A stretch of DNA of 63,424 bases from an uncultured Alphaproteobacteria bacterium (GTDB taxonomy: Bacteria; Pseudomonadota; Alphaproteobacteria; Methylaequorales; Methylaequoraceae): NCBI GenBank assembly GCA_902536485.1, contig CACAXP010000003.1:1-63424 (forward strand), read 5' to 3'. The first letter of the stretch is position 1. Every line of letters begins with the position of its first letter. Positions 48,193 to 63,424 of the stretch are shown here, in pieces. The position numbers and the translations under genes are program-made. The notes below the pieces were generated by a model. The model made no database searches. It was not told where the DNA came from and saw only the letters and a list, made by a program, of their open reading frames with translations.

Positions 48193-49221
48193 ATGAAATT
48201 CTTAGTTAAAATTTTTTTATTGTTATTTCTTGTATCATGTTCATCACATGATATCAAAGCCAGTAAATATGCTAAAATTAATGATTTTAATCAATATGAA
48301 AATAACTATTTAAGTGAAGAAAAAAGAGCCATAAAAAAATCTAAATTTTTTAGTTTCTTTTTTAAAAATATCTTTTTCCCACCGGGGAAAAAAAAATTTA
48401 ATTTAATGGATGTTGATGAACAAATTTATAATAGTGATTTATCATTACTTACATGGGCAGGTCACTCAACATTTTTACTCCAGTTTAAAAATACTAACAT
48501 TTTAATTGACCCGCACTTTTCATTAAGAGCATCTCCATTATCCTACATTGGACCAAAGAGATATATGCCCTCAGTTTTTAATAAAAATAATCTACCTAGG
48601 ATAGATGTTGTTGCAATAAGTCATAATCATTATGATCATCTAGATATTAAAACTCTAAAAAGCATAAATAAAAAATTTCCAGAAGCAAAGTTTCTTGTAC
48701 CTCTTGGTGATAAAGAACTACTTTTAAAAAATAATATTCAAAACGTAAAAGAATTTGATTGGTGGGAAAATCATAATATTAATGGTGTGAAATTTATTTT
48801 TACACCAGTTCAACATTGGTCAAAAAGAACTTTTTTTGATTTAAATAAATCGTTATGGGGTGGTTGGTGGGTTGAATCCAATAATTTTAAATTTTTGCAT
48901 CTAGGGGATACAGGATATACCAAGGACTTTAAAGATATAAAAAAAAAATTGGGTAAACCTGATCTTGTAGCTATTCCAATAGGAGCTTACAAACCTAGAG
49001 ATATTATGAGATATAGTCACCTTAACCCTGATGAGGCTTTGAAAACATTTATTGATTTAGAGGCAAAAAAAGCAGTTGCTATGCATTGGGGTACATTTAT
49101 CCTTAGTCAAGAGGCTGTAGATGAACCAATCAATGAAATAAAAAGTAACTTAAAAAACCAAGGTATTGAAGAGAGCAATTTTTTAATTTTAAAACACGGT
49201 GAAACTATTAATCTTAATTAG
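48193..49221 (+). CDS. Metallo-beta-lactamase fold hydrolase (NAPE-PLD/RomA-like), probable lipoprotein
   Basis: TWAGHSTF, SHNHYDHLD, PVQHWSKR, GDTGY, PIGAY, MHWGTF; lipobox LVSC. Confidence 0.88.
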   Translation: MKFLVKIFLLLFLVSCSSHDIKASKYAKINDFNQYENNYLSEEKRAIKKSKFFSFFFKNIFFPPGKKKFNLMDVDEQIYNSDLSLLTWAGHSTFLLQFKNTNILIDPHFSLRASPLSYIGPKRYMPSVFNKNNLPRIDVVAISHNHYDHLDIKTLKSINKKFPEAKFLVPLGDKELLLKNNIQNVKEFDWWENHNINGVKFIFTPVQHWSKRTFFDLNKSLWGGWWVESNNFKFLHLGDTGYTKDFKDIKKKLGKPDLVAIPIGAYKPRDIMRYSHLNPDEALKTFIDLEAKKAVAMHWGTFILSQEAVDEPINEIKSNLKNQGIEESNFLILKHGETINLN

Positions 49222-50010
49222 TTACATGCCAGGAATTCTTAAAAGACTTGTCCCTGCTTGGTCTAACTCCTCTGCCATTTGAATTAATTTAACATGCATT
49301 TCAAATTTTCGCATTTGGTCAATTGTATTGACCATTTCTTCAACAGCATTTACATTACTTTTTTCTAAGAAGCCAGCAGCTAATTTTGCTTGTTGATTTG
49401 GTTCTATTGGAATTTGTTCTATTGTGCCGTCTTCATTTATATTAGGATCAAACCTTATTTTTCCATCAAGAGATTTTTTTAAGAGATCTCCTTCTTGTGG
49501 AACATATGTAGCGATGGTTCCAGCATTTACAGGAAGTTCTCCTGGTGCAGCTGCAATTGGTTGAATTAGAATTTCACCTTGAGAAGTTACGTTAATTTCT
49601 CTAAAAGCGGGGATTACTAATGGTTGCATGCCAGCATCAAGAACTTTATTTCCTGCCCCATCAAGTAATTCACCATTTTCATTAACGCTGAAATCTCCTC
49701 GTCTAGAAAATGCAGGCTCGGCGTTATTTGGTTGAACTACAAAATATCCGTCACCATTAATAGCAACATCCATAGGATTTTGTGTATTATCCAACATCCC
49801 TTGTTCAACACTAAACTTTCCAACCTCCCTAGCTGCAACTATTCTAGGCTCAAGACCTTCTTGTCTGTTTAAATAAATTGAACTAAAGTCTGTAACTACG
49901 TCTTGTTTAAAACCAGGTGTTGAAAGATTGGAAAGATTGTGTGCTGTTGCAACTTGGTTTTCCATTAGCATTTTCATACTATTCAATGCTGTTTGTACCA
50001 TTCTATCCAT
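49222..50010 (-). CDS. flgF: Flagellar proximal rod protein FlgF
   Basis: AHNLSN.STPGFK, T.NPMDVAI.GDGYF, LEKSNVNAVEEMV; follows flgE. Confidence 0.9.
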   Translation of the reverse strand: MDRMVQTALNSMKMLMENQVATAHNLSNLSTPGFKQDVVTDFSSIYLNRQEGLEPRIVAAREVGKFSVEQGMLDNTQNPMDVAINGDGYFVVQPNNAEPAFSRRGDFSVNENGELLDGAGNKVLDAGMQPLVIPAFREINVTSQGEILIQPIAAAPGELPVNAGTIATYVPQEGDLLKKSLDGKIRFDPNINEDGTIEQIPIEPNQQAKLAAGFLEKSNVNAVEEMVNTIDQMRKFEMHVKLIQMAEELDQAGTSLLRIPGM

Positions 50011-50045
50011 TTATAAACTCCTGATTAATTTAAATTTTCTATTTA

Positions 50046-53000
50046 TTACATTCTAATGTTAACGATTGCCTGTGTAGTAGCAGCCGTTGTTTCAATAGAT
50101 TTAGCGTTAGCCTGGAAGTTTCTTTGTGCTGTGATTAAGTTCACAAGTTCTTCAGTAATATCTACATTAGATCTTTCTAATGAACCTGATAATACAGTAC
50201 CAAAACCCTCTGCACCTGCTTCACCAACCGTCGCGGTTCCTGATACCGCAGTTTCAACGTAAGTTGCGTTACCGATCTGTTTCAAACCATTTTGGTTGTT
50301 AAAATTCGCTAGAACTAGCTTTCCCAGTGGGTTGTTCTGACCATTAGTGTAGTTTGCTCTAACTGTTCCATTGGCATCAACTTCAAGACCATCTAATCTT
50401 CCGGATGTAAAACCATCCTGATTAACTGTTGACACGAAGAATGGTTGAGCTAACTGGGTAGACTTTGTAAAGTCAATGTCAAGGTCAATACTAAAACCTG
50501 CTTCTTGTTTCTCGTAATGAACTCCTTGTTTTGGACTTAGGATTCTACCAGATTTATCAAATGTTAACTCACCTTCATCAATATAAAGTGGGAAGAAGCC
50601 ATCAACTAAGTTGGCAGGAGGTGTGGTTACCTTGTTACCATTGGCATCAACAAATAAGTTTAGTCCATCTGCGTTTGTAGCTTGTTGTAAATTATAAATT
50701 TGAGGTACTGAGCCAACACCCAAATCAACATCGTCAAGGCCAAACTTATTAGATCCTCTGACTTTAATTGTTGAGTCTCTACCTGTTGTACCATTAGTAA
50801 ATGTGAATTTATTTGTAGTGGAGTCGTATTTTACGGTAATACCTCCACCAACATTTCCTGTAGAGTCTTCAATCTGATTAATTCTTTGTTGAAGAGCCTC
50901 TGCTAATGTTGTTCCCACATAAAAACCTTGGGGAATTTCAATGACACCCGCAATACCATTTACAGATACGTTAAATATATTTTCATTAGCTTGTGTTGTT
51001 AATCTAAATACTTGAGTTAAATCCTCAGTAGCTGATGCACCAACTGCTTGCGCCGGTTGAGCTGCTAGACCTTTTGCTGCTGTTGTTATGGCATTTGTTT
51101 TTGTTACACCAACTCCAAGAAGGTTGTTATCTCCACCAAAAAAGTCTGTAGTGTCTGTTACTGAACCATCAGTTGTTGACAATAAATATCTCCCTACAGC
51201 AATGTTAGATGCAGTTTGTGCTGTGGTTACTCCAATGGCACCATTAGCTGCAATTGTTTCTCCCGTAGTTCCGCTACTAAATTCAAAAGCTTTTAACTCA
51301 CTGTTATACCCAACCTTAACTCCAAATCTTTTATCGTTAAGCTGAATCTCAGCACCATCTGCAACGAATGTAGCCGCAGAAAATTTTTCACCACCACGAA
51401 TTAGTGTTTCTGATGTGTCATCAGCAGTAGGAATACCCAGATTATTAGTTGTTGTTGCTGTTGATGCACCAAAAATTTTAAAACTGTTAAAGTTACTGTT
51501 AGTACCAGTTCCGATTAAGTTTCTGTCTACTTCAAATTGAAGTCTTTGATTTAAAACGTCATAAGTTACTTCAATGGGAGGATCTTTTTCGTCAACCCAA
51601 TGCGTTGCTGCCTTAGTTTTATCGGCAGTTGATCCATCACCATTTAAATATAAATCATGATTTGCTGCAGAAGTATTTTCACCAATACCAACAAGATTGG
51701 CTGTATTCAAAGCTGCCCCAGTAGATAGTTTGTCAGCTTTAAGTGTAAAAACTTCGTCAAAATCATCAATTATATTTTTGCTGAATTTTGTTACCATTTG
51801 TGCATTAGTATAATCATGCTTAGTAGCGGTTCCGATTTCTCTCATTACCAACTTTTTATTACTGAAGTTTTCAGTTGCGCCTTTATAAACACTTTGAGCT
51901 CCCTCAAAATAGGCTTCTACTGCAGTTGATTCTGCACTGTAAATTTTGGCTACATTATTAGCGTTTAAAGCTATAGAGAAATCACTGTCAGGAAAGTTCA
52001 TGCCCGCAGTACTGCACTCAACATAGTATTGAAGAGCTCCACCAACACTCTCCGAACCAACTGAGGCAACCGTGAATTCACGTCCATTAACAAAGTCACC
52101 ATTGGTTGTGTCAGCGGCTGCATTATAAAAATTTCCCATGAGTCTAATTTTTGAATTAGCTGAAAGAGGAGGGTTGGTTGTTCCAAAATGGAATCTTACC
52201 GTATTTTCTGATTGATCATAAACTATAGCTTGGTTTGCATTAGCTGTTGCACCACCAGGATTGTTTGACATAGCAGTCTCCGTATCATAAACATTTAATT
52301 GTGGTGTCTTGCCATAATAAGAGTAAGTCATAAATCGATTAGTTTGTATACCACTATTAGCTTGTAACTCAGCGTTTGTATTAGAAGCTGTGTTAGAGGC
52401 TGACTTAGCTTGTGCATGTTTGAAGCTAAAGACTTGGTTTTGGTCTAGAATTGTTCCTATTGTTTTACCTGAAGCTCTGTAAAATAAACTATTATCAACA
52501 CCTAATGCAGCTGCTTTATCAACAGTATCAGCAGGATACGTAACAGCATATTCATTAAGTGAAGCATTAAGACGAGCTTGTGTATGAGCTAAAAATTGCT
52601 CTCTTGTAAAATCAGGTGATGCACCAGTCAATACTATTCCCTCTCTTGTAGATACATAGGATGCACCTAGGAGGTCAACGGATACAGCTGTTGTCAAACC
52701 TGTTGATGTTCCATCAGCATTTAACTTTAATAAGTCAATAGTCAAAGTATCATCAACGTTTTGAACGATCTGTATTTTCTTATCATCACCGTAAGCAGCA
52801 TTAATTGATCTTTGAATTTCTGTAGCGAGTTGTGTAGCGTTGTAAGAACCAGGTCTAATATCGATATTTACTGGTTGGTCACTGTTATCAACATTTATTG
52901 TCATAAAGTTTTTACCCCAATAAACATTTGATGTAGTGTCACCACTTTCTCTAGTTGAGTTGAATTTCATTGGATCGGTAACAACAGTAACTGTTTTGTC

Positions 53001-53942
53001 ACCTTCTTCACCAAAATCAAAACTACTCGATTCACCAGTTACTTTGGCTGGAGTAGAGTCTACTAAAGTTTTCAAATCATCTAATTTATAAAGTGCAGAA
53101 CCTTTTCCTTCCAAGAAGTAGTTATCATCTGGAACTTTTGTTGTTTGTTGTCCAAAACGATCAATAAAGATTGGTTGCTTTGTATCATTAACAGCTTTAA
53201 CTAAATCAGGATCAATAACAGTGTCATTAATCACTAATCTTGTTTCATACTTGTTGGTAGGATCAGATGCAGAAGCAGCCTGAGTTCTTATAAAATAAAT
53301 TGTTGCAATTGTTGGGTTACCCAAATCATCAAAGATTGTAATTGATGTTGAATTGTTAAAAGTAGTGGGATCATTGGGATTAAAAACATAACCACTTGCA
53401 AATTGTGGATCATCAGAAATCACATCACTTGTTGCTGAAACGTTCACACCTAATTCAATTGACGTTGTCGCTTTTGGTGTTCCGGATGTAACTGGTAACT
53501 GGAGAGGAACGGCACTAACTAAATCTTTTGCAGTAACAGATCCATCATCGTTGACTGGAAAAGTTAGAAGAAACTGTCCTGATGAGTCAGTTACGTATCT
53601 ATCGTTGTTTACGTTAAATGATCCATTACGTGTATAAACTGTCTGTCCTGAAGTCAAAGATGGTTTTAAGGAGAAGAAACCTTGACCTGAAATTGCCATA
53701 TCAAGCACGTTAAGTGAGGAGGTAATGTTACCTTGTGTAAACTGTTGCTTAACACTTTTTAAGATTGTACCAGAACCAATAGAGGAGGAAGCGTTCTGTA
53801 ATGGAGATGTTGCAAATATATCACCAAATTCTGCTCTCGATCTTTTAAAACCGGTCGTGTTAACGTTTGCGATATTGTTCGACGTTGCCGAAATATCCGA
53901 CTGTGCTCCGTTAAGTCCTGTAAGTGCTGTATAAAATGACAT
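50046..53942 (-). CDS. flgE: Flagellar hook protein FlgE, giant (1298 aa)
   Basis: N-terminal SNNIANVNTTGFKRSRAEFGD, YTRNGSF, FlaE/D2 motif ITIFDDLGN, C-terminal LERSNVDITEELVNLITAQRNFQANAK; between flgD and flgF. Confidence 0.93.
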   Translation of the reverse strand: MSFYTALTGLNGAQSDISATSNNIANVNTTGFKRSRAEFGDIFATSPLQNASSSIGSGTILKSVKQQFTQGNITSSLNVLDMAISGQGFFSLKPSLTSGQTVYTRNGSFNVNNDRYVTDSSGQFLLTFPVNDDGSVTAKDLVSAVPLQLPVTSGTPKATTSIELGVNVSATSDVISDDPQFASGYVFNPNDPTTFNNSTSITIFDDLGNPTIATIYFIRTQAASASDPTNKYETRLVINDTVIDPDLVKAVNDTKQPIFIDRFGQQTTKVPDDNYFLEGKGSALYKLDDLKTLVDSTPAKVTGESSSFDFGEEGDKTVTVVTDPMKFNSTRESGDTTSNVYWGKNFMTINVDNSDQPVNIDIRPGSYNATQLATEIQRSINAAYGDDKKIQIVQNVDDTLTIDLLKLNADGTSTGLTTAVSVDLLGASYVSTREGIVLTGASPDFTREQFLAHTQARLNASLNEYAVTYPADTVDKAAALGVDNSLFYRASGKTIGTILDQNQVFSFKHAQAKSASNTASNTNAELQANSGIQTNRFMTYSYYGKTPQLNVYDTETAMSNNPGGATANANQAIVYDQSENTVRFHFGTTNPPLSANSKIRLMGNFYNAAADTTNGDFVNGREFTVASVGSESVGGALQYYVECSTAGMNFPDSDFSIALNANNVAKIYSAESTAVEAYFEGAQSVYKGATENFSNKKLVMREIGTATKHDYTNAQMVTKFSKNIIDDFDEVFTLKADKLSTGAALNTANLVGIGENTSAANHDLYLNGDGSTADKTKAATHWVDEKDPPIEVTYDVLNQRLQFEVDRNLIGTGTNSNFNSFKIFGASTATTTNNLGIPTADDTSETLIRGGEKFSAATFVADGAEIQLNDKRFGVKVGYNSELKAFEFSSGTTGETIAANGAIGVTTAQTASNIAVGRYLLSTTDGSVTDTTDFFGGDNNLLGVGVTKTNAITTAAKGLAAQPAQAVGASATEDLTQVFRLTTQANENIFNVSVNGIAGVIEIPQGFYVGTTLAEALQQRINQIEDSTGNVGGGITVKYDSTTNKFTFTNGTTGRDSTIKVRGSNKFGLDDVDLGVGSVPQIYNLQQATNADGLNLFVDANGNKVTTPPANLVDGFFPLYIDEGELTFDKSGRILSPKQGVHYEKQEAGFSIDLDIDFTKSTQLAQPFFVSTVNQDGFTSGRLDGLEVDANGTVRANYTNGQNNPLGKLVLANFNNQNGLKQIGNATYVETAVSGTATVGEAGAEGFGTVLSGSLERSNVDITEELVNLITAQRNFQANAKSIETTAATTQAIVNIRM

Positions 53943-53964
53943 GTGTTTTCTCCTCTATTGTTAA

Positions 53965-54669
53965 TTAATCATTTGATTTAAATTTTATTGCATCAGAAGC
54001 AGAGATCTCTCCATAATCTTTTGTTTCTAATATTACATCCTCAGTATTTTTTGGTGCGGATGCGGCAATAACCTTGTTATAAACGGCTGTTGTCAAGCCG
54101 TCACTTGCTTCACCATTTCCAGCATAAGCTTGAATGGTTAAGCGTGTTTTATCTTTTCTGATGTCTTCAGGTATATCTACCCAGCTAAATCCAACCAAAC
54201 CTTTTTCATTAGAACCTAAATTCATAGTATGAACAATTTCTCCAGATGGACTTGTAAAAGTTAGACCAACATCATTAGAATATCCCGGTAAGTCAACAAC
54301 CCCATGAATTTCTCCCTTGTCATCAGGGCTAGCGACCTGACCAGGTACTAGAACAGAATGTCCAAGAAATTGTGCAGCTGTTGCTACTCTATTAGGTTCA
54401 AGCTTTGAACCCAAATTTGTCAAATTATTGTTTATTTCAGTAATTCCCGTTACAGTTGAAAATTGAGCCATTTGGGCAATAAAATCTCCATTATCCATGG
54501 GTGCAAAAGGATCTTGATTTTGAAGCTGTGCAGTCATAAGTTTAAGGAAATCTTCTTGACCTAAAGTATTTTTATTTCCTTGTTTTTGAACTTCTTCTTG
54601 TGTTTTTACACCAAGTTTTGAAAGTATTGCGTTAAGTGATTGTTCAGATGATTTATTAATGTCAGTCAT
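53965..54669 (-). CDS. flgD: Flagellar hook capping protein FlgD
   Basis: LGQEDFLKLMTAQLQNQDPF.PMDNGDFIAQMAQFSTV. Confidence 0.96.
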   Translation of the reverse strand: MTDINKSSEQSLNAILSKLGVKTQEEVQKQGNKNTLGQEDFLKLMTAQLQNQDPFAPMDNGDFIAQMAQFSTVTGITEINNNLTNLGSKLEPNRVATAAQFLGHSVLVPGQVASPDDKGEIHGVVDLPGYSNDVGLTFTSPSGEIVHTMNLGSNEKGLVGFSWVDIPEDIRKDKTRLTIQAYAGNGEASDGLTTAVYNKVIAASAPKNTEDVILETKDYGEISASDAIKFKSND

Positions 54670-54682
54670 ATTTTACCTCAGA

Positions 54683-55096
54683 TTATTTTCCCATATTTGC
54701 TGTTTTAAGCATTAGAGCTTTAATTGTTGTAATTACTTCTACGTTATTTTGATATTGTCTAGACGCTTCAAGCATATCTACATATTCTTCTTCAACATCC
54801 ACTGGAGCTTTGTATATAAAACCTTCGTTATCAGCCATAGGATGACCTGGCTTAAAAACTTTTATTGGTTCAATATCCATCTTTTCGACAGTTACAGCGT
54901 CAACTGTGGAAATTCCTCTTTTTCTTATTAAATCAAAATATTTTGTTTCAAAAACTGGTTTGACTGGCTTGTAGGCATCCTGAGGGTTTTGGGCAATGTT
55001 ATCAGCATTTGCTAAATTACTTGCAATTGCATTAAGCCTTACAAGTTGAGCACCCATTGCTCTTTGAGCTATTTTATATACATTTTTAATATCCAT
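54683..55096 (-). CDS. flgC: Flagellar rod protein FlgC
   Basis: RLNAIASNLANA, PGHP.AD.EG, V...EE.VDMLEASRQYQNN. Confidence 0.95.
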   Translation of the reverse strand: MDIKNVYKIAQRAMGAQLVRLNAIASNLANADNIAQNPQDAYKPVKPVFETKYFDLIRKRGISTVDAVTVEKMDIEPIKVFKPGHPMADNEGFIYKAPVDVEEEYVDMLEASRQYQNNVEVITTIKALMLKTANMGK

Positions 55097-55485
55097 TATT
55101 CGCCCCTAATTGCACTCATTAAACCTGATAGCTTAGAGTTAATAAAATTTAGTGTTGTTTGGTATCTCATAGTATTTTCAGCAAATTCTGTTTGTTCAAT
55201 TGATAATTCAACAGTATTTCCATCCATTGAAGGGTGAAGGGGTTTTCTGTATTGAACTTTTCCAGGAAGATTCTTGGATGCAAGTGCAATGTGTCCGTCT
55301 TTAGAAGTTTTTAAAGGACCTACGCTTAAAGCTTTTGCTAATTCTACGTCAAAGTCTAAATCTCTAGCTTTAAAATTAGGAGTTGCTGCATTAGCTATAT
55401 TAGAAGCAAGAATTTCATTTCTATTGTTTCTAATTCTTAATGCATTGCTGTAAACCTCGAATTGTTGTTTAATACTGTCAGTCAT
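55096..55485 (-). CDS. flgB: Flagellar rod protein FlgB
   Basis: LASNIANAATPNFKARDLDF, DGNTVEL..EQ. Confidence 0.96.
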   Translation of the reverse strand: MTDSIKQQFEVYSNALRIRNNRNEILASNIANAATPNFKARDLDFDVELAKALSVGPLKTSKDGHIALASKNLPGKVQYRKPLHPSMDGNTVELSIEQTEFAENTMRYQTTLNFINSKLSGLMSAIRGE

Positions 55486-55517
55486 AATTTTATTTTTTTT
55501 AAATTTGGTTTAGAATT

Positions 55518-55533
55518 TGCAAATTAAATGCCA
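55518..55533 (-). promoter_or_regulatory. Sigma54 (-24/-12) promoter of flgBCDEF
   Basis: Minus strand TGGCAT-TTAAT-TTGCA, 32 nt upstream of the flgB ATG. Confidence 0.85.
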
Positions 55534-55551
55534 AAAGAAAGGATAATGAAA

Positions 55552-56679
55552 ATGGATGAAAAATTTTCTATGAATACTGAGCTTGATCCTGAGGTAGTTA
55601 AGGTAAGAGATAAAATAATAAGTAAAATAGGTAATAAGCCATTAGATGAAGTTAACTCAATAATAAAAAAGTTACTAAATGATCAAACAGATGAAGTTAC
55701 TAGGCTTGGTTTGCTAGCAGCAAGAGTAAAAATTATAAGAGCAAAAATTGAGTCGTTATACGAACGAAAAGTAGAAATAAAACAAAAAGTTGTTTCTGAA
55801 CCAAGTGAAAAAGCTCTAGTTCAAGACCAAAAAGAAGATAAAGATAAAGATAAAGATAAAGATGAAAAATGGATTCGAGTTGTTATGTTGCAATCAGGCG
55901 ATGTTAACGGTAAACAAATAGATAAAGGAGTTGTTTTGGATGTTAAAGAGGAAGATGGAAAAAAATTAATTGAGGCAAAAAAAGCAGAAATAGTGGTGGA
56001 AAAAAAACCTGAAGTGAAAGAAGAAAAAGGAGAAAAAGAAGACGTAAAGCAAAAAAAAGATACAAAAGAGGAGGAAAAGCCGGCGGAAGATAAAAAAGAT
56101 GAAATAAAGCCTGAAAAAGAAGAAAAAGAAGAGGTAAAGGCAGAAAAAGAAGAGGTAAAGGCAGAAAAAGAAGAAAAAGAAGAGGTAAAGGCAGAAAAAG
56201 AAGAAAAACTAGATGAAAAAGATAGAGAAAAACTAGTCGTTAAGAAGGATGATGAAGAAAACGTTAGTCAATCTAAGGCTGACGTAGAGAAAACAGAAAC
56301 ATCTGCTGAAGATAAAACCACAACACCCGAGCCGGAAGAAATAGTTAAAAACGAAGATGAAGCAGAAAACAATTTGGAAGAGAATAAAAAAGGTGAAGAA
56401 GATGAGGGGAGTAAGGACCTATTAGAGCGACATCAAGAAAGAGTAGAGGAGGTTAATGAGGAAAAGTCTCCAGACACTTATGAGAAAGATTCTAATACAA
56501 AAAGTAAGGATGACGAATTTTCTGAAAATAAAAAAAATGAAAGTGAACCTGAAACAAAAGAGGTTTCAACAATTAATGATTCAAATAAAGATGAATCCAA
56601 AGGTGATATAACAACTGAAAATAAAAAAGATATCAAGGAGGATAATAGAGATAATGAAGTTTCAAACCAAAAAGAATAG
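55552..56679 (+). CDS. Hypothetical protein: helical N-terminus, small globular module, long Glu/Lys/Asp-rich tail
   Basis: Long ORF; start placed at ATG 55552 (AAAGGA at usual spacing) because ATG 55528 lies inside the flgB promoter. Confidence 0.75.
   Translation: MDEKFSMNTELDPEVVKVRDKIISKIGNKPLDEVNSIIKKLLNDQTDEVTRLGLLAARVKIIRAKIESLYERKVEIKQKVVSEPSEKALVQDQKEDKDKDKDKDEKWIRVVMLQSGDVNGKQIDKGVVLDVKEEDGKKLIEAKKAEIVVEKKPEVKEEKGEKEDVKQKKDTKEEEKPAEDKKDEIKPEKEEKEEVKAEKEEVKAEKEEKEEVKAEKEEKLDEKDREKLVVKKDDEENVSQSKADVEKTETSAEDKTTTPEPEEIVKNEDEAENNLEENKKGEEDEGSKDLLERHQERVEEVNEEKSPDTYEKDSNTKSKDDEFSENKKNESEPETKEVSTINDSNKDESKGDITTENKKDIKEDNRDNEVSNQKE
55837..55863 (+). repeat. In-frame hexamer microsatellite (GATAAA)4.5 encoding DKDKDKDKD
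   Basis: Read directly from sequence. Confidence 0.9.
56113..56208 (+). repeat. In-frame tandem repeat: three 21-bp units GAAAAAGAAGAGGTAAAGGCA (EKEEVKA) interleaved with GAAAAAGAA
   Basis: Perfect units at 56122, 56143 and 56173. Confidence 0.9.
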
Positions 56680-57028
56680 TTATAAATATTTTAATATTAT
56701 CTATTTGTTAATTTTCTTTCCTCTTTTAATTGGATGTGAAGACTTGTTTTTAAGGTTTAAATATGAAACATACGAATGCACAAAAAATTATTTTAAATTA
56801 AAGAGTGTATTCATAAAAAATTATGATCCAGGAGACTTAGTAGATGTTGAAATTGACAATAGTGGCTATAAGTTAAAAATTAAAGAAAATAATGAAAGCC
56901 TTATGATTATTGAGCGGGAAGATCCATTCATATCAATTAGGATTGAAAAAAAAACATCAAAGCTAAATGTTAACTTTAAAAACCATATTCAAAATATTGA
57001 ATGTAGTAAGCATGTTTTCAAAATGTAA
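56654..57028 (+). CDS. Hypothetical lipoprotein
   Basis: Basic N-terminus, hydrophobic stretch and lipobox LIGC. Confidence 0.6.
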   Translation: MKFQTKKNSYKYFNIIYLLIFFPLLIGCEDLFLRFKYETYECTKNYFKLKSVFIKNYDPGDLVDVEIDNSGYKLKIKENNESLMIIEREDPFISIRIEKKTSKLNVNFKNHIQNIECSKHVFKM

Positions 57029-57030
57029 TT

Positions 57031-57456
57031 TTAGGATCTACCGTGGTACTTAATAATAGGCTCAATTTCTTCTTTAGTCATACCTGTTGTCTGTGAAATT
57101 TCATCAATAGATTTACCCTGATTAGCCATTTTAATTGCATTCGTCATGTTTGAATCTCCTTCAGACGAATCTGCTAGTCTAGAGATTTCTTGATCAAGCC
57201 TCTCTAAAGTATACTTATAGTTGTTCAAAATTTTTTTTTGGTCAGAAAGGGATAATTCTAGTGCTCGAAATTCTTCAATCAAATCTTTAATTGCTCTTTC
57301 TAAAATATTTAACTTTTTTTTATTTTGTTTGTTTTTTTGAAAATCAAGATAAAAACCAATCACAATTAGAATTAATGATAATAGAAATATTAGCAATAGA
57401 ACCTTTGCAGTATTATTTATGGGATCGAGTTGAATGAAATTTTGTAAAAAATCCAT
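57031..57456 (-). CDS. DUF2802-like membrane-anchored protein
   Basis: N-terminal TM, coiled coil, C-terminal A.KMA.QG.SIDEI....GMT.EE...II..H pattern. Confidence 0.7.
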   Translation of the reverse strand: MDFLQNFIQLDPINNTAKVLLLIFLLSLILIVIGFYLDFQKNKQNKKKLNILERAIKDLIEEFRALELSLSDQKKILNNYKYTLERLDQEISRLADSSEGDSNMTNAIKMANQGKSIDEISQTTGMTKEEIEPIIKYHGRS

Positions 57457-57492
57457 AATCTATCATAAATTTATAACTTAATTACTACAACA

Positions 57493-57768
57493 CTAATTAA
57501 TTTTTCTGTTTTTGATAAAATTTTGAAAATCAGATAAAAATTTTTTTTTATCCTCTTGTTTTGAAGATATTTTTTTTATTAAAATTTCTAACTTTTCGAT
57601 ATCATTTTTATTAAATTGAGAATCAAAATTTTCAGATGAACTAATTATATTTTTGATATTAGAAGAAATTTCATTTATTTGTTTTTCGAGAGATTGCAAC
57701 TCACTTGGGTTGTGAGAATCAAAACTTTTTTCTAAAAGTTTTAATAAATTTTTTAGACCATTCTGCAT
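57493..57768 (-). CDS. Hypothetical helical protein in the FlgN position
   Basis: 91-aa amphipathic helical ORF directly after flgM; no recognisable motif. Confidence 0.5.
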   Translation of the reverse strand: MQNGLKNLLKLLEKSFDSHNPSELQSLEKQINEISSNIKNIISSSENFDSQFNKNDIEKLEILIKKISSKQEDKKKFLSDFQNFIKNRKIN

Positions 57769-57790
57769 TACCTAGAAAGATAAAAAAGTT

Positions 57791-58105
57791 CTACTCTTTC
57801 ATTTCTTTATAAGCGTCAAACAAAGCATCGGCTATTTTATCTAAATCAATAGGATAAGAGCCATTAGCAATAGCATTCTTAATTCGCGATGTTGCGGCTT
57901 GATCTATTGGAGGTTCTTTTGCCATATCCTTAATTTTCTCTTTAGTTACGAATTTGGAAACCTCGCTACTGTCATATTTTTGTTTAGCGTTAGAATGATC
58001 GATTCCTTTAACCTGAATACTACTAGATTTCTTGGAATCAGAACTCACTTTGTTACTTCCAGCACTGCCAAGACTGTTTAGATTATTTTTAATTTGATCA
58101 ACCAT
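57791..58105 (-). CDS. flgM: Anti-sigma28 factor FlgM
   Basis: C-terminal PPID......IK.AIANGSYPIDLDKIADAL. Confidence 0.9.
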   Translation of the reverse strand: MVDQIKNNLNSLGSAGSNKVSSDSKKSSSIQVKGIDHSNAKQKYDSSEVSKFVTKEKIKDMAKEPPIDQAATSRIKNAIANGSYPIDLDKIADALFDAYKEMKE

Positions 58106-58139
58106 AATATAATTTTCCTAATTTAATTCATTATTATAA

Positions 58140-58166
58140 TAAACGTCACTTTTTTAGTTTTGTTTA
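58140..58166 (-). promoter_or_regulatory. Possible sigma28 (FliA) promoter of flgM
   Basis: TAAA-N15-GACGTTTA against consensus TAAA-N15-GCCGATAA; weak in AT-rich DNA but correctly placed. Confidence 0.4.
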
Positions 58167-58855
58167 GTTTTTAACACAACTTTTTTTTCATTTTTTGCAT
58201 ATCCGTTAATAATTTTTCCACTTTTGATGTTTTTAACTCTAATTTTTCCCATAAAATCAGCACTATTTAGAGCAATTCCTTCTTCTTTAATTGTAATACT
58301 TCCAACCTTATTTTCTATTATTATAATGCTATTCTTTTCTATTAGCCAATCCTTTTCAAAATTTGAATGATATAGTGCTTTTCCAGATGAAATAGAATTT
58401 TTAAGTTTTTTTCCAACTATTTTACTTTTTTCTTCAACCAAATTATTCTTTATAATAATAGATTTCTTGACATAAACTAAGTCATCCTCATTAATCACTG
58501 CTCCAGCAGACTTAGGGTTTTTAAGAGTTATAACATTAAATTTTTTTTTATTTTTTTCTTTTAAACTATATGATTTTTTATTTTTGGATTTATTTCTTGT
58601 TATTAAACTCCATTCGTTAGGATATAAACAACTGATTTTAATAAGATTGAATGAACCTGAAATATCTGAGATTAACATATTATTATTTGTGCAAGAGGGA
58701 TATTTCAAACTCTTGAGGAGTTTAACATTACCAGATTGATTATTTTTTTTTAACCATTCATTAACTAAACCTTCTATTTCCTTTCCATTAATTGAGTTAG
58801 AGGCTTTGGAGTCACAAAAAAAACTAATGAAAACAAAAAACAAAAAGAGCTTCAT
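58154..58855 (-). CDS. flgA: P-ring assembly chaperone FlgA
   Basis: Signal peptide, SAF-like domain, C-terminal G.ALNS...G.IRVKN..SG.II; upstream of flgM. Confidence 0.85.
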   Translation of the reverse strand: MKLFLFFVFISFFCDSKASNSINGKEIEGLVNEWLKKNNQSGNVKLLKSLKYPSCTNNNMLISDISGSFNLIKISCLYPNEWSLITRNKSKNKKSYSLKEKNKKKFNVITLKNPKSAGAVINEDDLVYVKKSIIIKNNLVEEKSKIVGKKLKNSISSGKALYHSNFEKDWLIEKNSIIIIENKVGSITIKEEGIALNSADFMGKIRVKNIKSGKIINGYAKNEKKVVLKTKQN

Positions 58856-58860
58856 ATTAT

Positions 58861-59298
58861 TTAGTTTCCGTAAAAATAAATATGATTTCTTTGGCTTGAT
58901 TTTGAATTTGAATTTTTGTCAGGAGCTTTTCTTACTAAATTCATTATCTCACTTACAGAAGGAATTTTTAAAACTTTTCCTGCGTACAAAAAATGAGGAT
59001 TTTCTCTTACAAATGCATGCTTGTTTATTTCTATTAAGGATATTTCAATGATTTTCATATTTAAACCTGTATTACCATAATATTTATTAAGAATTTCGCT
59101 AAGTGATTCACCTTCCTTAACTTTATGGTTGACAGAATAGTTATGATCTTTAATAAACCTATTGTTTTTATTGATATTTTTTTTGTTTAACTCGTTGTTT
59201 AAATTTTGATTATTGTATTCAAGAATAACAAAGGGTTCATTGGATTTGATTTCAAATCCTAAAAAAGTAATAAAAAGTATAATAAAAAAATTCTTCAT
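58861..59298 (-). CDS. Secreted stand-alone LysM protein (FimV/HubP-type LysM)
   Basis: VKEGESLSEI...INKHAF..ENPHFLYAGKVLKIP; ATG 59298 lies 1 nt after the flgT stop. Confidence 0.7.
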   Translation of the reverse strand: MKNFFIILFITFLGFEIKSNEPFVILEYNNQNLNNELNKKNINKNNRFIKDHNYSVNHKVKEGESLSEILNKYYGNTGLNMKIIEISLIEINKHAFVRENPHFLYAGKVLKIPSVSEIMNLVRKAPDKNSNSKSSQRNHIYFYGN

Positions 59299-59299
59299 T

Positions 59300-60478
59300 T
59301 TAATTTGTAAACCTAATAATTTTTCCATTCAAATCTTCTGTTTTATTTGATGGATTTAGTATATCAAGAATTGAAAAGTTTCCGCTCGTTTTTTTTACTG
59401 TCACAGCAACCCAATCATTCATGGAATGATTAATGTTCCTGTTAGACACGTAACCTACATTTCCAATTTCAAGACCATGATTAATTCCTATTGGTACGGT
59501 TAGGACCCCTTTAACAATTTCAGCTTTTGCTTCAAGAGGATGGCACTTTAATTCATCAATAACTCTGAATTGAATTTTTGATAAACTCTTTGAAATTAAA
59601 CTTGTAATTTTATCATAAGGGACTCTGTAAAAAGCATCAACATGAGAATATCCAGTTTCATTTCCTAAATAAATTGAAAATGTGTAGTTCAATGAATCAA
59701 TTAAATTTAATCTTGGTCCTTCATAAATGTTCAGTTTCAAATTTATTATCAATTCATCGGAAAATCTTGTTAGCCTTCCTTTTCCTCTATTAATATTTAT
59801 TATTGGATGTAAACCAAATTCACCACTTTTTATTGAATCAACTTCGCCCTCCACCAGAGAAGTATAATCTAGTTCTAGGGGTTTGTTCGCTAATGTTTTT
59901 GGATTAAAGGCAAATCCAGTTAAATCTATTAGATTTAGGTTATTAAACTCTTTTAAATTTTTATATATATTTGAGGAAATAATTGATGGAAATTTTTGAC
60001 TGTAAGCCGGAAGACTGCTAGACACCCTAAAATAAGGTCTTAGATAACTTAAATTAATTTGTTCTCTAGCATCACAGTTTTGGGTTTCATTAACGCTTAC
60101 AAGAAAAGCTCGTATTTTAACTAAAAAGTGTGTAGGATCCTCTTTTTCCTCAATGATAACAAAATCTTTTATAGAAGATGAGGGTCTGATTAATATATTT
60201 TCATTTAGAGATGTATTTGTGTTCACAGAAGAATAACCATCAACTTTTGCACCAGCTTGAAGGCTTGCCATATACAAAGCATCATCTAAAGCTCTTTTTT
60301 TTGCCGTTTCTACATCACCTTCAATAATGACAGCACGTCCTTCAGAAACTACTTCAGTGTGCTTAAATTCTTGGGCGACAAGAAAAGTTGTAAAAAATAA
60401 AAAAAATAATAGGGATGAAAAAAAGAGTGTTAGCTCTTTTAGTAATCCATCAACTTTATTATAAGGAATTCTTTTCAA
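59300..60478 (-). CDS. flgT: Flagellar H-ring/T-ring assembly protein FlgT
   Basis: FlgT N-domain VSEGRAVI..GD...AKKRALDDAL..A...AGA.V and C-domain C.PLEAK...V.IG..HGL..G. Confidence 0.82.
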   Translation of the reverse strand: MKRIPYNKVDGLLKELTLFFSSLLFFLFFTTFLVAQEFKHTEVVSEGRAVIIEGDVETAKKRALDDALYMASLQAGAKVDGYSSVNTNTSLNENILIRPSSSIKDFVIIEEKEDPTHFLVKIRAFLVSVNETQNCDAREQINLSYLRPYFRVSSSLPAYSQKFPSIISSNIYKNLKEFNNLNLIDLTGFAFNPKTLANKPLELDYTSLVEGEVDSIKSGEFGLHPIININRGKGRLTRFSDELIINLKLNIYEGPRLNLIDSLNYTFSIYLGNETGYSHVDAFYRVPYDKITSLISKSLSKIQFRVIDELKCHPLEAKAEIVKGVLTVPIGINHGLEIGNVGYVSNRNINHSMNDWVAVTVKKTSGNFSILDILNPSNKTEDLNGKIIRFTN

Positions 60479-60490
60479 TCTAATATCCCT

Positions 60491-60994
60491 TTACAATGTT
60501 TGTGCTTGTCTAAACAAATAAGCAACCATGTCTTGGTCAATCTCCAAAACAGTCTCATAGGTATCTGAACCAGTTGGATTAATCCTTACAGTTCTGGCTC
60601 CTCTGATAACTCCAGAGACAATACCCCTGAATGTGTCATTTTGAACCATTAAATCAATTACAGTTGTATTACTGTCAACTTTTAAGCCATGTATTTGTTC
60701 AGCTAATTCTCTCATTGCAGACATTCTTGCTGCTCTGATAGCCATAAGCCTTCTTTGTTCAATATTTTGCCCTGGTTGGGTCGAAACTACAGCATATCCA
60801 GTTGCTGTTAGAGTAGGGAAGGTAATTGATGCACCGTCTAATAATTCTCTAGTTTTGTTTAATTGGTTTGTTGGTGCGGAATAGTCATCACCTAAATTAT
60901 TTTTACTAAGTTTAGGTTGATTTAGATTATCCATTAAATTTGTTGCACAGGATTGCATAAATAAAATTGCAATTGCTAAAACTATATTTTTCAT
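60491..60994 (-). CDS. flgP: Flagellar lipoprotein FlgP (LPP20 family)
   Basis: Lipobox MQSC; ATGYAVV...RLMAIRAARMSAMRELAEQIHGL.V. Confidence 0.88.
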   Translation of the reverse strand: MKNIVLAIAILFMQSCATNLMDNLNQPKLSKNNLGDDYSAPTNQLNKTRELLDGASITFPTLTATGYAVVSTQPGQNIEQRRLMAIRAARMSAMRELAEQIHGLKVDSNTTVIDLMVQNDTFRGIVSGVIRGARTVRINPTGSDTYETVLEIDQDMVAYLFRQAQTL

Positions 60995-61036
60995 ATTTTT
61001 TGTCCTTAATTAAATTTATAACTTATGAGAAGTCGT

Positions 61037-61052
61037 TGCATAATTTATGCCA
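61037..61052 (-). promoter_or_regulatory. Sigma54 promoter of the flgP-flgT-LysM-flgA-flgM operon
   Basis: Minus strand TGGCAT-AAATT-ATGCA, 42 nt upstream of the flgP ATG. Confidence 0.75.
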
Positions 61053-61087
61053 CATCACTTAAATCGTTGTTTTGCATTTAATCTTTG

Positions 61088-61103
61088 TGGCATAGCCCTT
61101 GCA
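61088..61103 (+). promoter_or_regulatory. Sigma54 promoter of flhA-flhF
   Basis: TGGCAT-AGCCC-TTGCA, 90 nt upstream of the flhA ATG. Confidence 0.85.
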
Positions 61104-61193
61104 TCTCTTTATATATATGAAAAAAAAATTAATAAATGAAGGTAAACCAGGGCTTTCAGATGGTCAATTTTTTGACTCTAGAGGTATTGAAGT

Positions 61194-63329
61194 ATGGATT
61201 TAGTTTTACGACAGTTTGAAAAAGCAAATTTTTTAAGTTTGATTAGAACGTTCAGTATACCTGTTGGAATTATAATTTTGATTACCATGATGGTGATTCC
61301 CTTAAGTCCATGGTTACTAGATTTGTTATTAACATCAAATTTGCTTATTTCCTTACTTGTATTGATGGTAGCTTTACAAGCTTTTAGACCATTAGATTTT
61401 TCAAGTTTTCCAACAGTATTATTATTTGCCACCGTTTTGAGATTAGGACTCAATGTGGCATCAACCAGAGTTATCTTAAAAAACGGTCATTCAGGAACAG
61501 ATTCAGCTGGAAGTATAATTGAAGCTTTTGGTGAGTTTGTAATGTCAGGAAGTTACGCAGTTGGTCTTTTTGTTTTTGCAATTTTAGTAATAATCAATTT
61601 AATTGTAATTACAAAAGGTGCTGGAAGAGTGTCTGAAGTAGCAGCAAGATTTACTTTAGATGCAATGCCTGGAAAACAGATGGCTATTGACGCGGATCTC
61701 AATGCAGGGATATTAACTAGTGAAGAGGCGAAAGAGCGAAGAAAAGAAATCGCTAAAGAGGGGGAATTTTATGGGGCTATGGATGGTGCAGCGAAGTTCG
61801 TAAAAGGAGATGCGATAGCTGGTATTTTAATTCTTATTATTAATATAATTGGTGGGTTAATTATCGGTACTACACAACATGACTTAAGTTTATCTGAATC
61901 AGCTGAAACTTATATTCTATTAACAGTAGGTGATGGTCTTGTTGCTCAAATTCCTTCATTATTATTAGCCATGGCTACTGCAACAATTGTTACAAGAATC
62001 TCTTCTGACAACGATGATTTAGCAGGACAGATTTCAAATCAAATGGGATTATCAAAGGCGTGGGTTCCAGTTTCTGCAGTTCTGTTATTATTTGGTTTAG
62101 TTCCAGGAATGCCAAATACTTTATTCCTTGCTGGCTCGCTTCTTTCTGGAATTATAGCATGGTACACATCAAAGCAATCTGATGATTCTGATTCTAATCT
62201 TAATAAAGAGGATACTAGCGAAGAAAATCCAGGAAAAATTGATATGGATGAAGTTTCAGATAATTCTTCAATTTCTCTTGACCTTGGTTATGGACTTATT
62301 TCAATGGTTGATTCAAATGATAAAAAATCTGCAGGACCACTTATTTCAAAAATAACTGGTATAAGAAGACAAGTTTCTAAAGATCTGGGTTTTATTATTC
62401 CCAATGTGAGAGTCAGAGATGACTTATCATTAGACGCAAATGCCTATCAAATTAAAATTGGTCACACTATTGTTGCTGAAGATTTAATATATGCTGACAG
62501 AAAATTAGCTATGCCAGGTAACGAAACTCAAATGAAAATTCAAGGAATTAAAGTTAAGGATCCATCCTTTGGATTAGATGCGTATTGGATTGAAAAGCAC
62601 ATGGTCGCAAAAGCTGAATCTCAACATTATATGGTTGTTGAACCTGAGGCAGTAATTGGTACTCATTTGAACCAAGTTTTATTAAAATATGCAGGAGAGT
62701 TGTTAAGCCAAGACGATGTTCAGTCATTACTAGATAATTTGTCAAAAGTTAATCCTCAACTAGTTCAATCAGTTGTTCCAAAACTAGTTCCTTTACATCA
62801 TTTAACATTGATTTTAAGAAATCTTTTAGTAGAGAGAGTTCCAATAAGTGATCTGAAAAAAATTTTAGAAGCTTTGTCTAACCTTTCAGAAAAAAAATTA
62901 TCTCCAGATGAACTATCAGAAGCTGTAAGACCAGTTATTTCATCTTTGTTGATTCAAAAAATATCAAATGTAAAAGATTCCTTGAACATAGTTACATTTA
63001 ATCCTGATTTTGAACAAATGCTTATTACAATGGCAAAAAAAAGCAGTTCAGAGGGATTATTAATTGATCCAAGTTTAGCTAAGGAAATGATTCAATCGAT
63101 TATAGAAATAGGTGAGAAGTTTTCTGCTGATAACAGTTCCTTAGTTATTGTTACCTCGCCTATAATAAGAAAAGATCTGTCAATTCTATTGCGCCAGCAT
63201 GTAGAAGACGTTGTAGTTCTATCTTTCACAGAGCTACCTGAAAACAAAAGAGTGAAAGTAATTGCTACAGTTGGAGAAAAAATATCAACTTCAGATAAGG
63301 AGAAAAATAATGAAAACGCAAACATTTAA
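61194..63329 (+). CDS. flhA: Flagellar export gate protein FlhA
   Basis: FSSFPTVLL, ITKGAGRVSEVAARFTLDAMPGKQMAIDADLNAG, GAMDGAAKFVKGDA, GDGLVAQIP. Confidence 0.98.
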   Translation: MDLVLRQFEKANFLSLIRTFSIPVGIIILITMMVIPLSPWLLDLLLTSNLLISLLVLMVALQAFRPLDFSSFPTVLLFATVLRLGLNVASTRVILKNGHSGTDSAGSIIEAFGEFVMSGSYAVGLFVFAILVIINLIVITKGAGRVSEVAARFTLDAMPGKQMAIDADLNAGILTSEEAKERRKEIAKEGEFYGAMDGAAKFVKGDAIAGILILIINIIGGLIIGTTQHDLSLSESAETYILLTVGDGLVAQIPSLLLAMATATIVTRISSDNDDLAGQISNQMGLSKAWVPVSAVLLLFGLVPGMPNTLFLAGSLLSGIIAWYTSKQSDDSDSNLNKEDTSEENPGKIDMDEVSDNSSISLDLGYGLISMVDSNDKKSAGPLISKITGIRRQVSKDLGFIIPNVRVRDDLSLDANAYQIKIGHTIVAEDLIYADRKLAMPGNETQMKIQGIKVKDPSFGLDAYWIEKHMVAKAESQHYMVVEPEAVIGTHLNQVLLKYAGELLSQDDVQSLLDNLSKVNPQLVQSVVPKLVPLHHLTLILRNLLVERVPISDLKKILEALSNLSEKKLSPDELSEAVRPVISSLLIQKISNVKDSLNIVTFNPDFEQMLITMAKKSSSEGLLIDPSLAKEMIQSIIEIGEKFSADNSSLVIVTSPIIRKDLSILLRQHVEDVVVLSFTELPENKRVKVIATVGEKISTSDKEKNNENANI

Positions 63330-63423
63330 GGCAAAGGACGTTAAGTCTGCTATTAATTTAGTTAATGACGAATTTGGTGAAAAAGCAATAATATTATCAA
63401 CAAAGAAAAATAATGGATTTGTT
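63310..63423 (+). CDS. flhF: FlhF SRP-family GTPase, N-terminus only (runs off window edge)
   Basis: Manual translation MKTQTFKAKDVKSAINLVNDEFGEKAIILSTKKNNGFV matches the FlhF B-domain start; overlaps flhA end. Confidence 0.8.
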   Translation, partial: MKTQTFKAKDVKSAINLVNDEFGEKAIILSTKKNNGFV

Positions 63424-63424
63424 G

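Follow-up and report, generated by a model that had tools for sequence, protein, structure and literature searches.

A Fla1/fla3-type flagellum, probably ancestral to the streamlined marine alphaproteobacterial order TMED127 and used without chemotaxis

Introduction

Among the flagella of the Fla1/fla3 lineage is the single subpolar one of Rhodobacter (Cereibacter) sphaeroides, an organism that, unlike those reported here, has several chemotaxis systems. Genome-streamlining theory treats 1.5-Mb, low-GC (guanine-plus-cytosine) oligotrophs as non-motile. Here, we describe the flagellar genes at the end of a 63,424-bp contig (GenBank CACAXP010000003.1; "the window" below means this whole stretch) from the marine alphaproteobacterial order TMED127 ("Methylaequorales"). 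They probably encode part of a Fla1/fla3 flagellum that came from the gamma- and betaproteobacterial (gamma/beta) radiation, was ancestral to TMED127, has been inherited vertically since, is the only flagellum of its bearers, and drives undirected swimming.

In Rhodobacterales, fla3 occurs sporadically, as a second system that operon transfer has spread (PMC12363192). Octadecabacter has no flagellar cluster other than fla3, the type behind the R. sphaeroides "Fla1" flagellum (PMC5030684, PMC12363192). On Octadecabacter plasmid pOA238_118, an LPP20(flgP)-flgT-flgA-flgM block diverges from flhA, both FlgT and FlgP are present, and RpoN is encoded within the flagellar loci. The polar flagellum of Gammaproteobacteria (Vibrio, Pseudomonas, Shewanella) combines the gene order flhA-flhF-flhG-fliA with sigma54 and sigma28 control, the outer-ring proteins FlgT and FlgP, and a DUF2802 gene. 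All of these features recur in TMED127, where sigma54 and sigma28 control is predicted from genes and promoter sites. The native alphaproteobacterial flagellum (Caulobacter, rhizobia, Azospirillum, and Rhodobacterales fla1/fla2) has homologous core structural proteins and shares the host class, but it has no FlgT and its FlhA forms a separate clade.

Results

The window is the whole of contig C3 in a 1.02-Mb draft genome (49 contigs; completeness, 62.6%; contamination, 0.04%; GC content, ~29 to 30%). The host belongs to the alphaproteobacterial order TMED127; the nearest named FlhA (84% identical) comes from single amplified genome (SAG) AG-901-J22, listed in Table S3 of PMC12542740 as c__Alphaproteobacteria;o__TMED127;f__TMED127;g__MED-G10. 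An assignment to SAR116 (low-GC subclade) or HIMB59/AEGEAN-169 was rejected, since this SAG does not appear in the published genome tables for those groups. TMED127 is a deep-branching order of one family and 12 genera with genomes of ~1.5 Mb; its members are marine lanthanide-dependent XoxF5 methylotrophs, reach relative abundances of up to ~4% in marine metagenomes between ~48 degrees N and S, and rank among the methanol oxidizers with the highest transcriptional activity in surface seawater (PMC12542740). The genome set used here for the order comprised 42 species genomes (9 of them high quality) from 14 genera of a single family. A methanol/ethanol-family pyrroloquinoline quinone dehydrogenase (XoxF, the hallmark of TMED127) was found in 14/14 genera, this genome included. 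The accessible literature contained no motility report for the order, and the paper dedicated to it is silent on flagella and motility (PMC12542740).

The first 49 kb of the window carry ordinary chromosomal housekeeping genes (gatA, gatB, aspS, topA, lptD, pepA, fabF, and photolyases), the alphaproteobacterial backbone described by the original prediction, which had been made from the window alone. From position 49,222 to the contig end, all flagellar genes have intact reading frames, as it had also stated. The flagellar genes with named families, and the promoters assigned to them, are as follows.

49222-50010, minus strand: flgF, proximal rod, last gene of the flgBCDEF operon (Pfam Flg_bbr_C, LlgE_F_G_D1)
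50046-53942, minus strand: flgE, giant hook protein of 1298 amino acids (aa) (Pfam Flg_bb_rod, D1, FlgE_D2, and Flg_bbr_C at the two ends)
53965-54669, minus strand: flgD, hook cap (Pfam FlgD, E = 2.6e-23)
54683-55096, minus strand: flgC, rod (Pfam Flg_bbr_C and Flg_bb_rod; 38% identity to E. coli FlgC)
55096-55485, minus strand: flgB, rod (36% full-length identity to E. coli FlgB; weak Pfam Flg_bb_rod match)
55518-55533, minus strand: predicted sigma54 (-24/-12) promoter of flgBCDEF, TGGCATTTAATTTGCA, a perfect match 33 bp upstream of the flgB start
57031-57456, minus strand: DUF2802 protein (Pfam DUF2802, 37.3 bits versus a cut-off of 33.5)
57791-58105, minus strand: flgM, anti-sigma28 factor (Pfam FlgM)
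58154-58855, minus strand: flgA, P-ring chaperone (Pfam ChapFlgA)
58861-59328, minus strand: small LysM-domain protein between flgT and flgA (Pfam LysM, 21.5 bits versus a cut-off of 20.9)
59300-60478, minus strand: flgT, H-ring/outer-ring assembly protein (Pfam FlgT_N, PF16548, 39.7 bits versus a cut-off of 28.8)
60491-60994, minus strand: flgP, LPP20-family lipoprotein (Pfam LPP20)
61037-61052, minus strand: sigma54-type site facing flgP in the flgP/flhA divergent gap, TGGCATAAATTATGCA, one mismatch
61088-61103, plus strand: predicted sigma54 promoter of flhA-flhF, TGGCATAGCCCTTGCA, a perfect match upstream of flhA
61194-63329, plus strand: flhA, export gate (Pfam FHIPEP, 775 bits, E = 7e-233)
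63310-63424, plus strand: 5' end of a probable flhF, first 38 codons, cut by the contig end (20-nucleotide overlap with flhA)

The block flgP-flgT-LysM-flgA-flgM, its divergence from flhA-flhF, and the DUF2802 gene all lie where the original prediction had put them. The flgBCDEF operon also stood, with the correction that flgF is its last gene and that flgG to flgL are on another contig (C8). The sigma54 promoters that it had named were recovered in a scan of the 63-kb window with the consensus TGGYAY-N5-TTGCW, which gave only two perfect matches, both in divergent flagellar gaps. In base composition, the cluster matches its host: the GC content of its genes is 0.26 to 0.37, versus 0.296 for the contig; the highest value, that of flgE (0.37), is shared by its orthologues and would reflect the Gly/Ala/Thr-rich composition of hook proteins.

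Because a plain sequence search of the PDB with FlgT found nothing, its structure was predicted with AlphaFold (12 input sequences; pLDDT, 70.5; pTM, 0.63) and compared using Foldseek. The top matches were Vibrio FlgT 3W1E (E = 9.5e-17, full length, 385 aligned columns) and the LPHT-ring entry 8Z5N, with the next match ten orders of magnitude weaker. TM-scores to these two were only 0.38 to 0.41, which we attribute to differing domain orientations. The window FlgT thus carries the FlgT_N domain and, as modeled, is predicted to adopt the three-domain FlgT fold of Vibrio. Its neighbor FlgP is 54% identical to the LPP20 protein encoded beside flgT on Octadecabacter pOA238_118. The flhF stub matches the N terminus of a 385-aa FlhF-like protein of the related single-cell genome L001 at 36/38 residues (95%); the L001 protein is consistent with FlhF in gene position and N-terminal domain, and gave no Pfam SRP54 match at E < 1e-5.

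FlhA was used as the phylogenetic marker. The window FlhA is 43 to 49% identical to FlhAs from gamma/beta and unclassified loci (at most 45% for named gamma/beta genomes, and 43 to 45% for the gammaproteobacterial polar type) and 35 to 41% identical to those of 15 other alphaproteobacterial families. In agreement with the earlier statement that native alphaproteobacterial flagella lack FlgT, FlgT_N was detected in only 12/401 sampled alphaproteobacterial genomes. Its carriers outside TMED127 have genomes of 1.6 to 2.6 Mb, and their flhA, where found, is 51 to 59% identical and mostly adjoins flgT. A tblastn search of plasmids retrieved the FlhA of Octadecabacter arcticus 238 pOA238_118 (55% identical).

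The more careful of the FlhA trees (LG+C20 PMSF; 62 FlhAs; support given as ultrafast bootstrap/SH-aLRT) used six non-proteobacterial outgroups, for which Bacillota, Acidobacteriota, and Thermomicrobiota sequences from the plasmid collection were added to Listeria. TMED127 and eight FlgT-bearing alphaproteobacterial FlhAs, Octadecabacter fla3 included, formed one clade (100/100), and this clade joined all gamma/beta FlhAs in another (100/100). Within the larger clade, the beta/enteric group branched off first. The remainder split into 13 gammaproteobacterial FlhAs and a nested series in which a Burkholderiales metagenome-assembled genome (MAG), then an unclassified Pseudomonadota MAG, preceded the clade of TMED127 and the eight FlgT-type alphaproteobacteria (92/94, 97/99, 100/100, and 100/100). 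Native alphaproteobacterial FlhAs formed their own clade (100% SH-aLRT in a quick tree of the same rows). Forcing all alphaproteobacterial FlhAs into a single clade cost 117.8 log-likelihood units and was rejected by the approximately unbiased (AU) test (p = 2.3e-6), in line with the expectation that this FlhA would not group with native ones.

On these sequences, membership of the TMED127 flagellum in the Fla1/fla3 lineage appears solid, and there is good support for its FlhA having arisen inside the gamma/beta flagellar radiation. TMED127 FlhA is not sister to any named gammaproteobacterial group; the tree does not allow a donor to be named and places other alphaproteobacteria, not gammaproteobacteria, as the apparent nearest relatives. 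The original prediction of an anciently transferred, ameliorated flagellum in a streamlined alphaproteobacterial lineage is supported to that extent, as judged by FlhA. The closest FlhA outside the alphaproteobacterial clade (49%) is that of MAG 'Pseudomonadota bacterium DC_HB_01_SPN181219-bin053' (L003), which shares the layout flgFEDCB ... flhA-flhG-fliA and could mark the donor lineage.

Gene order in TMED127 is a mosaic, with the upstream side (flgP / flhA) arranged as in fla3 and the downstream side (flhF-flhG-fliA) as in gamma/beta loci. Both flgP and flgT adjoin flhA in TMED127, versus 1/47 and 0/47 gamma/beta loci, respectively. Conversely, flhG and fliA were found in 42/47 and 46/47 gamma/beta loci, and no match to flhF, flhG, or fliA was seen in the Octadecabacter stretch examined, whereas TMED127 keeps all three after flhA. 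In 43/47 gamma/beta loci, flhB is ≤10 kb from flhA, directly upstream where inspected, whereas in TMED127 neither flhB nor fliR is upstream of flhA, and flhB ends the fliE-fliR operon on contig C4. Unlike the gammaproteobacterial polar type, TMED127 also has no cheY-cheZ-cheA-cheB after fliA. The likeness to Fla1 claimed earlier holds (FlhA clade, 100/100, and layout), while the Vibrio-type label is too narrow, given the position of flhB and the missing che genes. Several traits also separate TMED127 from fla3: relative to Rhodobacterales, its system is sole, chromosomal, and order-wide, and relative to Octadecabacter, it has a LysM gene between flgT and flgA, a FlgE of 1298 aa, and a FlgK of 1790 aa. 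The LysM gene is kept in all relatives and in an alphaproteobacterial MAG (L002; FlhA, 57% identical), and had no match in the Octadecabacter cluster.

The remaining flagellar genes were located by tblastn with E. coli seeds and then Pfam scans of the genome's contigs. Contig C4 carries fliE, fliF, fliG, fliH, fliI, (fliJ), fliK, fliL, fliM, fliN, (fliO), fliP, fliQ, fliR, and flhB, together with motA, motB, and rpoN. Contig C8 carries flgG, flgH, flgI, the rod-binding flgJ, flgK, flgL, and fliD, and a filament locus (C8:14222-26391) encoding a long flagellin of 524 aa, three short ones of 264 to 268 aa, and three FliS paralogues. A TPR protein of 560 aa and a GT-D-like glycosyltransferase are encoded there too. 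For a genome of 1.5 Mb, this is a rich set of filament genes, and it hints at flagellin glycosylation. In L001, which is of the same family, flhA is followed immediately by the flhF-like gene, a MinD-type flhG, and fliA (TIGR02479, 201 bits, above the cut-off). Export, motor, and filament genes and rpoN were recovered from the rest of the assembly, and fliA from relatives only. The flagellar loci combined span ~60.7 kb (~4% of a 1.5-Mb genome), and the window probably holds one of the organism's three or four chromosomal flagellar loci, which together would encode its only flagellum.

Genes for regulators of this flagellum were found on C4 (RpoN), in the window (FlgM), and in L001 (FliA). Upstream of fliE on C4, two sigma54 enhancer-binding proteins are encoded back to back and divergently (C4:339-1040, minus strand, and C4:1246-2397, plus strand). 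The 383-aa protein of this pair, encoded immediately upstream of fliE, ends 16 residues past the AAA+ lid domain, leaving no room for a DNA-binding (helix-turn-helix) domain; it presumably resembles R. sphaeroides FleT as reportedly described by Poggio et al. 2005.

Two structural proteins are greatly enlarged. FlgE has its conserved domains at the two ends of an 880-aa insert, and the full-length giant form is retained across the order (74 to 89% identity; ratio of nonsynonymous to synonymous substitution rates [dN/dS], 0.06). FlgK, the hook-filament junction protein, is 1790 aa long (C8:29378-34750, minus strand; L143:378-5750), ~3 times the size of its E. coli counterpart, and parallels FlgE in that its D1 and N- and C-terminal rod domains at the two ends flank an insert of >1300 aa. 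Giant FlgE (~1260 to 1540 aa) occurs in all TMED127 genera examined, L002 (L002:59-2074) keeps at least the first 700 FlgE residues, part of the insert included, and the L003 hook gene is of normal length (~430 aa; L003:729-2030). Because L002 shares the expansion and the sister MAG L003 has an ordinary-size hook, the expansion would have arisen within the alphaproteobacterial FlgT-type lineage.

None of the chemotaxis domains sought was found in TMED127 or in other FlgT-bearing alphaproteobacterial genomes. CheW and MCPsignal domains were each found in 0/42 TMED127 genomes, and CheW was found in 0/9 other FlgT-bearing alphaproteobacterial genomes (0/51 together); the named control genomes gave the expected results. 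Among 16 alphaproteobacterial genomes with native-type FlhA, 11 had CheW, and the five lacking it were all small (1.4 to 2.1 Mb). High-quality TMED127 genomes encode five REC-domain proteins each, three of ~230 aa and two NtrC-like of ~470 aa, with no single-domain CheY in a Pfam REC scan of five genomes. In the genome itself, the matches to an E. coli CheY seed were limited to an OmpR-type regulator (C10) and a multidomain regulator (C27). With CheA, CheW, MCPs, and single-domain CheY all missing from the order, swimming is predicted to be undirected. In FliM (C4:10260-11237) and 120 homologues, the N-terminal peptide KLS(S/T)EEV(N/S)ALM(E/D)GL, the counterpart of the docking motif for phosphorylated CheY, is nevertheless strictly conserved. 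FlhG, which TMED127 also encodes, binds the FliM N terminus during C-ring assembly (PMC12826062), and the peptide may have been retained without CheY for that reason.

Within TMED127, flhA (one copy each; 73 to 95% identity) was found in 37/42 species genomes, 9/9 high-quality genomes, and 14/14 genera, and flagellin in 37/42 genomes and 14/14 genera. FlhA divergence follows genus and family levels. The order photolyase-orf217-ODC-EamA-(MBL)-flgF...flhA is identical in seven other genera, in which flgF orthologues are 63 to 78% identical and hold the same position. Since gene order is kept this widely, the 49.2-kb junction is ancestral to much of the order. The same flagellar cluster is borne by a single 1,487,008-bp contig of a near-complete TMED127 genome (L146, ENA ERZ28548058). 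There, flhF, fliA, and flgA are split into pieces, which we take to be long-read frameshift errors and not decay.

The dN/dS of the flagellar genes was 0.01 to 0.17 relative to a same-genus genome (dS, 0.28 to 2.1; the value for the LysM gene was left out), and relative to another genus, it was equal to or below that of housekeeping neighbors. These values point to strong purifying selection on genes that were probably inherited vertically within TMED127.

Discussion

The explanation that we favor as probable begins with the entry of this flagellar lineage into Alphaproteobacteria from the gamma/beta radiation, as suggested by the FlhA tree. The last common ancestor of TMED127 would already have borne the flagellum, which would have been passed on vertically since, adapting fully to a GC content of 29%. 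RpoN and the two enhancer-binding proteins would activate the early and middle genes (flhA-flhF, flgBCDEF, flgP-flgM, and fliE-flhB), FlhF and FlhG would set the site and number of flagella, and export of FlgM would release FliA, allowing flagellin expression. FlgT and FlgP would form a ring around the LP rings, and MotAB would power rotation. Undirected swimming could then raise encounter rates instead of following gradients. That the flagellum drives swimming is likely, as predicted from its genes.

Several points weigh against parts of this explanation. The phylogeny uses one marker, FlhA, whose amino acid composition in TMED127 is deviant and was flagged in the trees, and fla3 is represented by Octadecabacter and not by C. 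sphaeroides itself. Nesting of the FlgT-type alphaproteobacterial group inside gamma/beta FlhAs has support of 92/94 only, and an initial, differently sampled tree made the group sister to the main gamma/beta clade instead. The AU rejection depends on adequate rooting, because with Listeria as the sole, long outgroup, alphaproteobacterial monophyly was not rejected (p = 0.154). For flhG and fliA, the only sightings come from close relatives, the genome itself being 63% complete, and the L001 FlhF matched TIGR03499 (E = 2.7e-21) at 76.8 bits, below the curated cut-off of 174. Finally, gene presence is no proof of swimming, since Octadecabacter strains with fla3 only have been described as non-motile (PMC5030684).

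The single-outgroup result also leaves room for a history without horizontal transfer, in which a polar flagellum with FlgT, FlgP, FlhF, FlhG, and sigma54 control is the ancestral proteobacterial type, kept by deep-branching alphaproteobacterial orders such as TMED127, and the native alphaproteobacterial type (that of Rhodospirillales, rhizobia, and Caulobacter) is either its rapidly evolving descendant or an old paralogue. Being found beyond Proteobacteria as well, FlhF/FlhG and sigma54 control are old characters; flhF follows flhA in Bacillota records, and the FlgT-type alphaproteobacterial FlhAs form one alpha-only clade spread over at least seven families. The deep branching of TMED127 (PMC12542740) and the recruitment of fla3 "from other alphaproteobacterial orders" (PMC12363192) fit such a history too. 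We nonetheless consider it unlikely: the single alphaproteobacterial clade is rejected with six outgroups, the FlgT-type group branches within the gamma/beta FlhAs (92/94), later than the beta/enteric split, and with FlgT_N in so few of the 401 genomes, a history without transfer would imply a very large number of losses or the coexistence of two systems in the alphaproteobacterial ancestor.

The genes could also be real while the apparatus does not serve swimming; it might be a device for secretion or attachment, or a relic that is conditionally silent, as in other bacteria described as non-motile despite retaining flagellar genes. The wholesale lack of chemotaxis in TMED127, the non-motile fla3-only Octadecabacter, and the highly unusual sizes of FlgE and FlgK speak for it. 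It is still the more improbable of these two alternatives, given that intact genes exist for the flagellins, FliD, three FliS, FlgK, FlgL, MotA, MotB, and the FliG/M/N switch, while secretion-only systems such as that of Buchnera lack flagellin and stators. A relic is hard to square with ~60 kb of a streamlined genome kept under strong purifying selection in 14 genera. As for a binning or assembly artifact, or a recent acquisition joined near 49.2 kb, the incomplete draft in 49 contigs and the raised GC content of flgE would be its only traces. We give it almost no weight: the possible chimeric join is refuted by the same junction and flanking genes in seven other genera, the cluster recurs in a single-cell genome and on the 1.49-Mb contig, and FlhA divergence tracks taxonomy.

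If TMED127 does carry an ancestral Fla1/fla3 flagellum, then the Fla1/fla3 flagellum that looks "foreign" in Rhodobacter is resident in whole lineages of marine alphaproteobacteria, where it is inherited vertically, and these lineages become candidate sources of the Rhodobacterales clusters. Encounter rates, access to methanol and the phycosphere, and exposure to phages and grazers would need remodeling for TMED127. The most surprising aspects are the lack of chemotaxis and the giant hook and junction proteins. More tentatively, and with somewhat less than an even chance, TMED127 and at least six other small-genome (1.6- to 2.6-Mb) alphaproteobacterial families could form an unrecognized guild of "blind swimmers" that share the Fla1-type lineage, the lack of chemotaxis, and an unusual flagellum. 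Such a guild would use its flagellum for undirected or speed-modulated motility, and its existence in the oligotrophic ocean would contradict the textbook pairing of streamlining with non-motility.

Additional features of the locus

The other features of the flagellar end of the window are as follows.

48193-49221: MBL-fold gene, convergent with flgF and abutting it
55506-55521: one-mismatch sigma54 site preceding orf376
55549-56679, plus strand: orf376, acidic/basic (E-, K-, and D-rich) conserved protein (no Pfam/NCBIfam family)
56654-57028, plus strand: orf124, conserved protein (no Pfam/NCBIfam family; orthologues in most relatives examined and in L002)
57493-57768, minus strand: orf91 (no family found in Pfam or NCBIfam; dN/dS, 0.17)

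All relatives, and L002 too, keep the N-terminal half of orf376. At this position, orf376 and orf124 recur across TMED127 and in L002, and they are probably lineage-specific flagellar proteins. A 91-aa gene was also called at the position of orf91 in further TMED127 contigs; it may be flgN, the chaperone gene found beside flgM, a name suggested by position only. An extra FlgG/FlgF-like rod paralogue (264 to 273 aa) is encoded at C42:118-939 (minus strand) and L001:15163-15957 (minus strand), beside a TRAP transporter; its gene converges on the end of the flhA-flhF-flhG-fliA operon.

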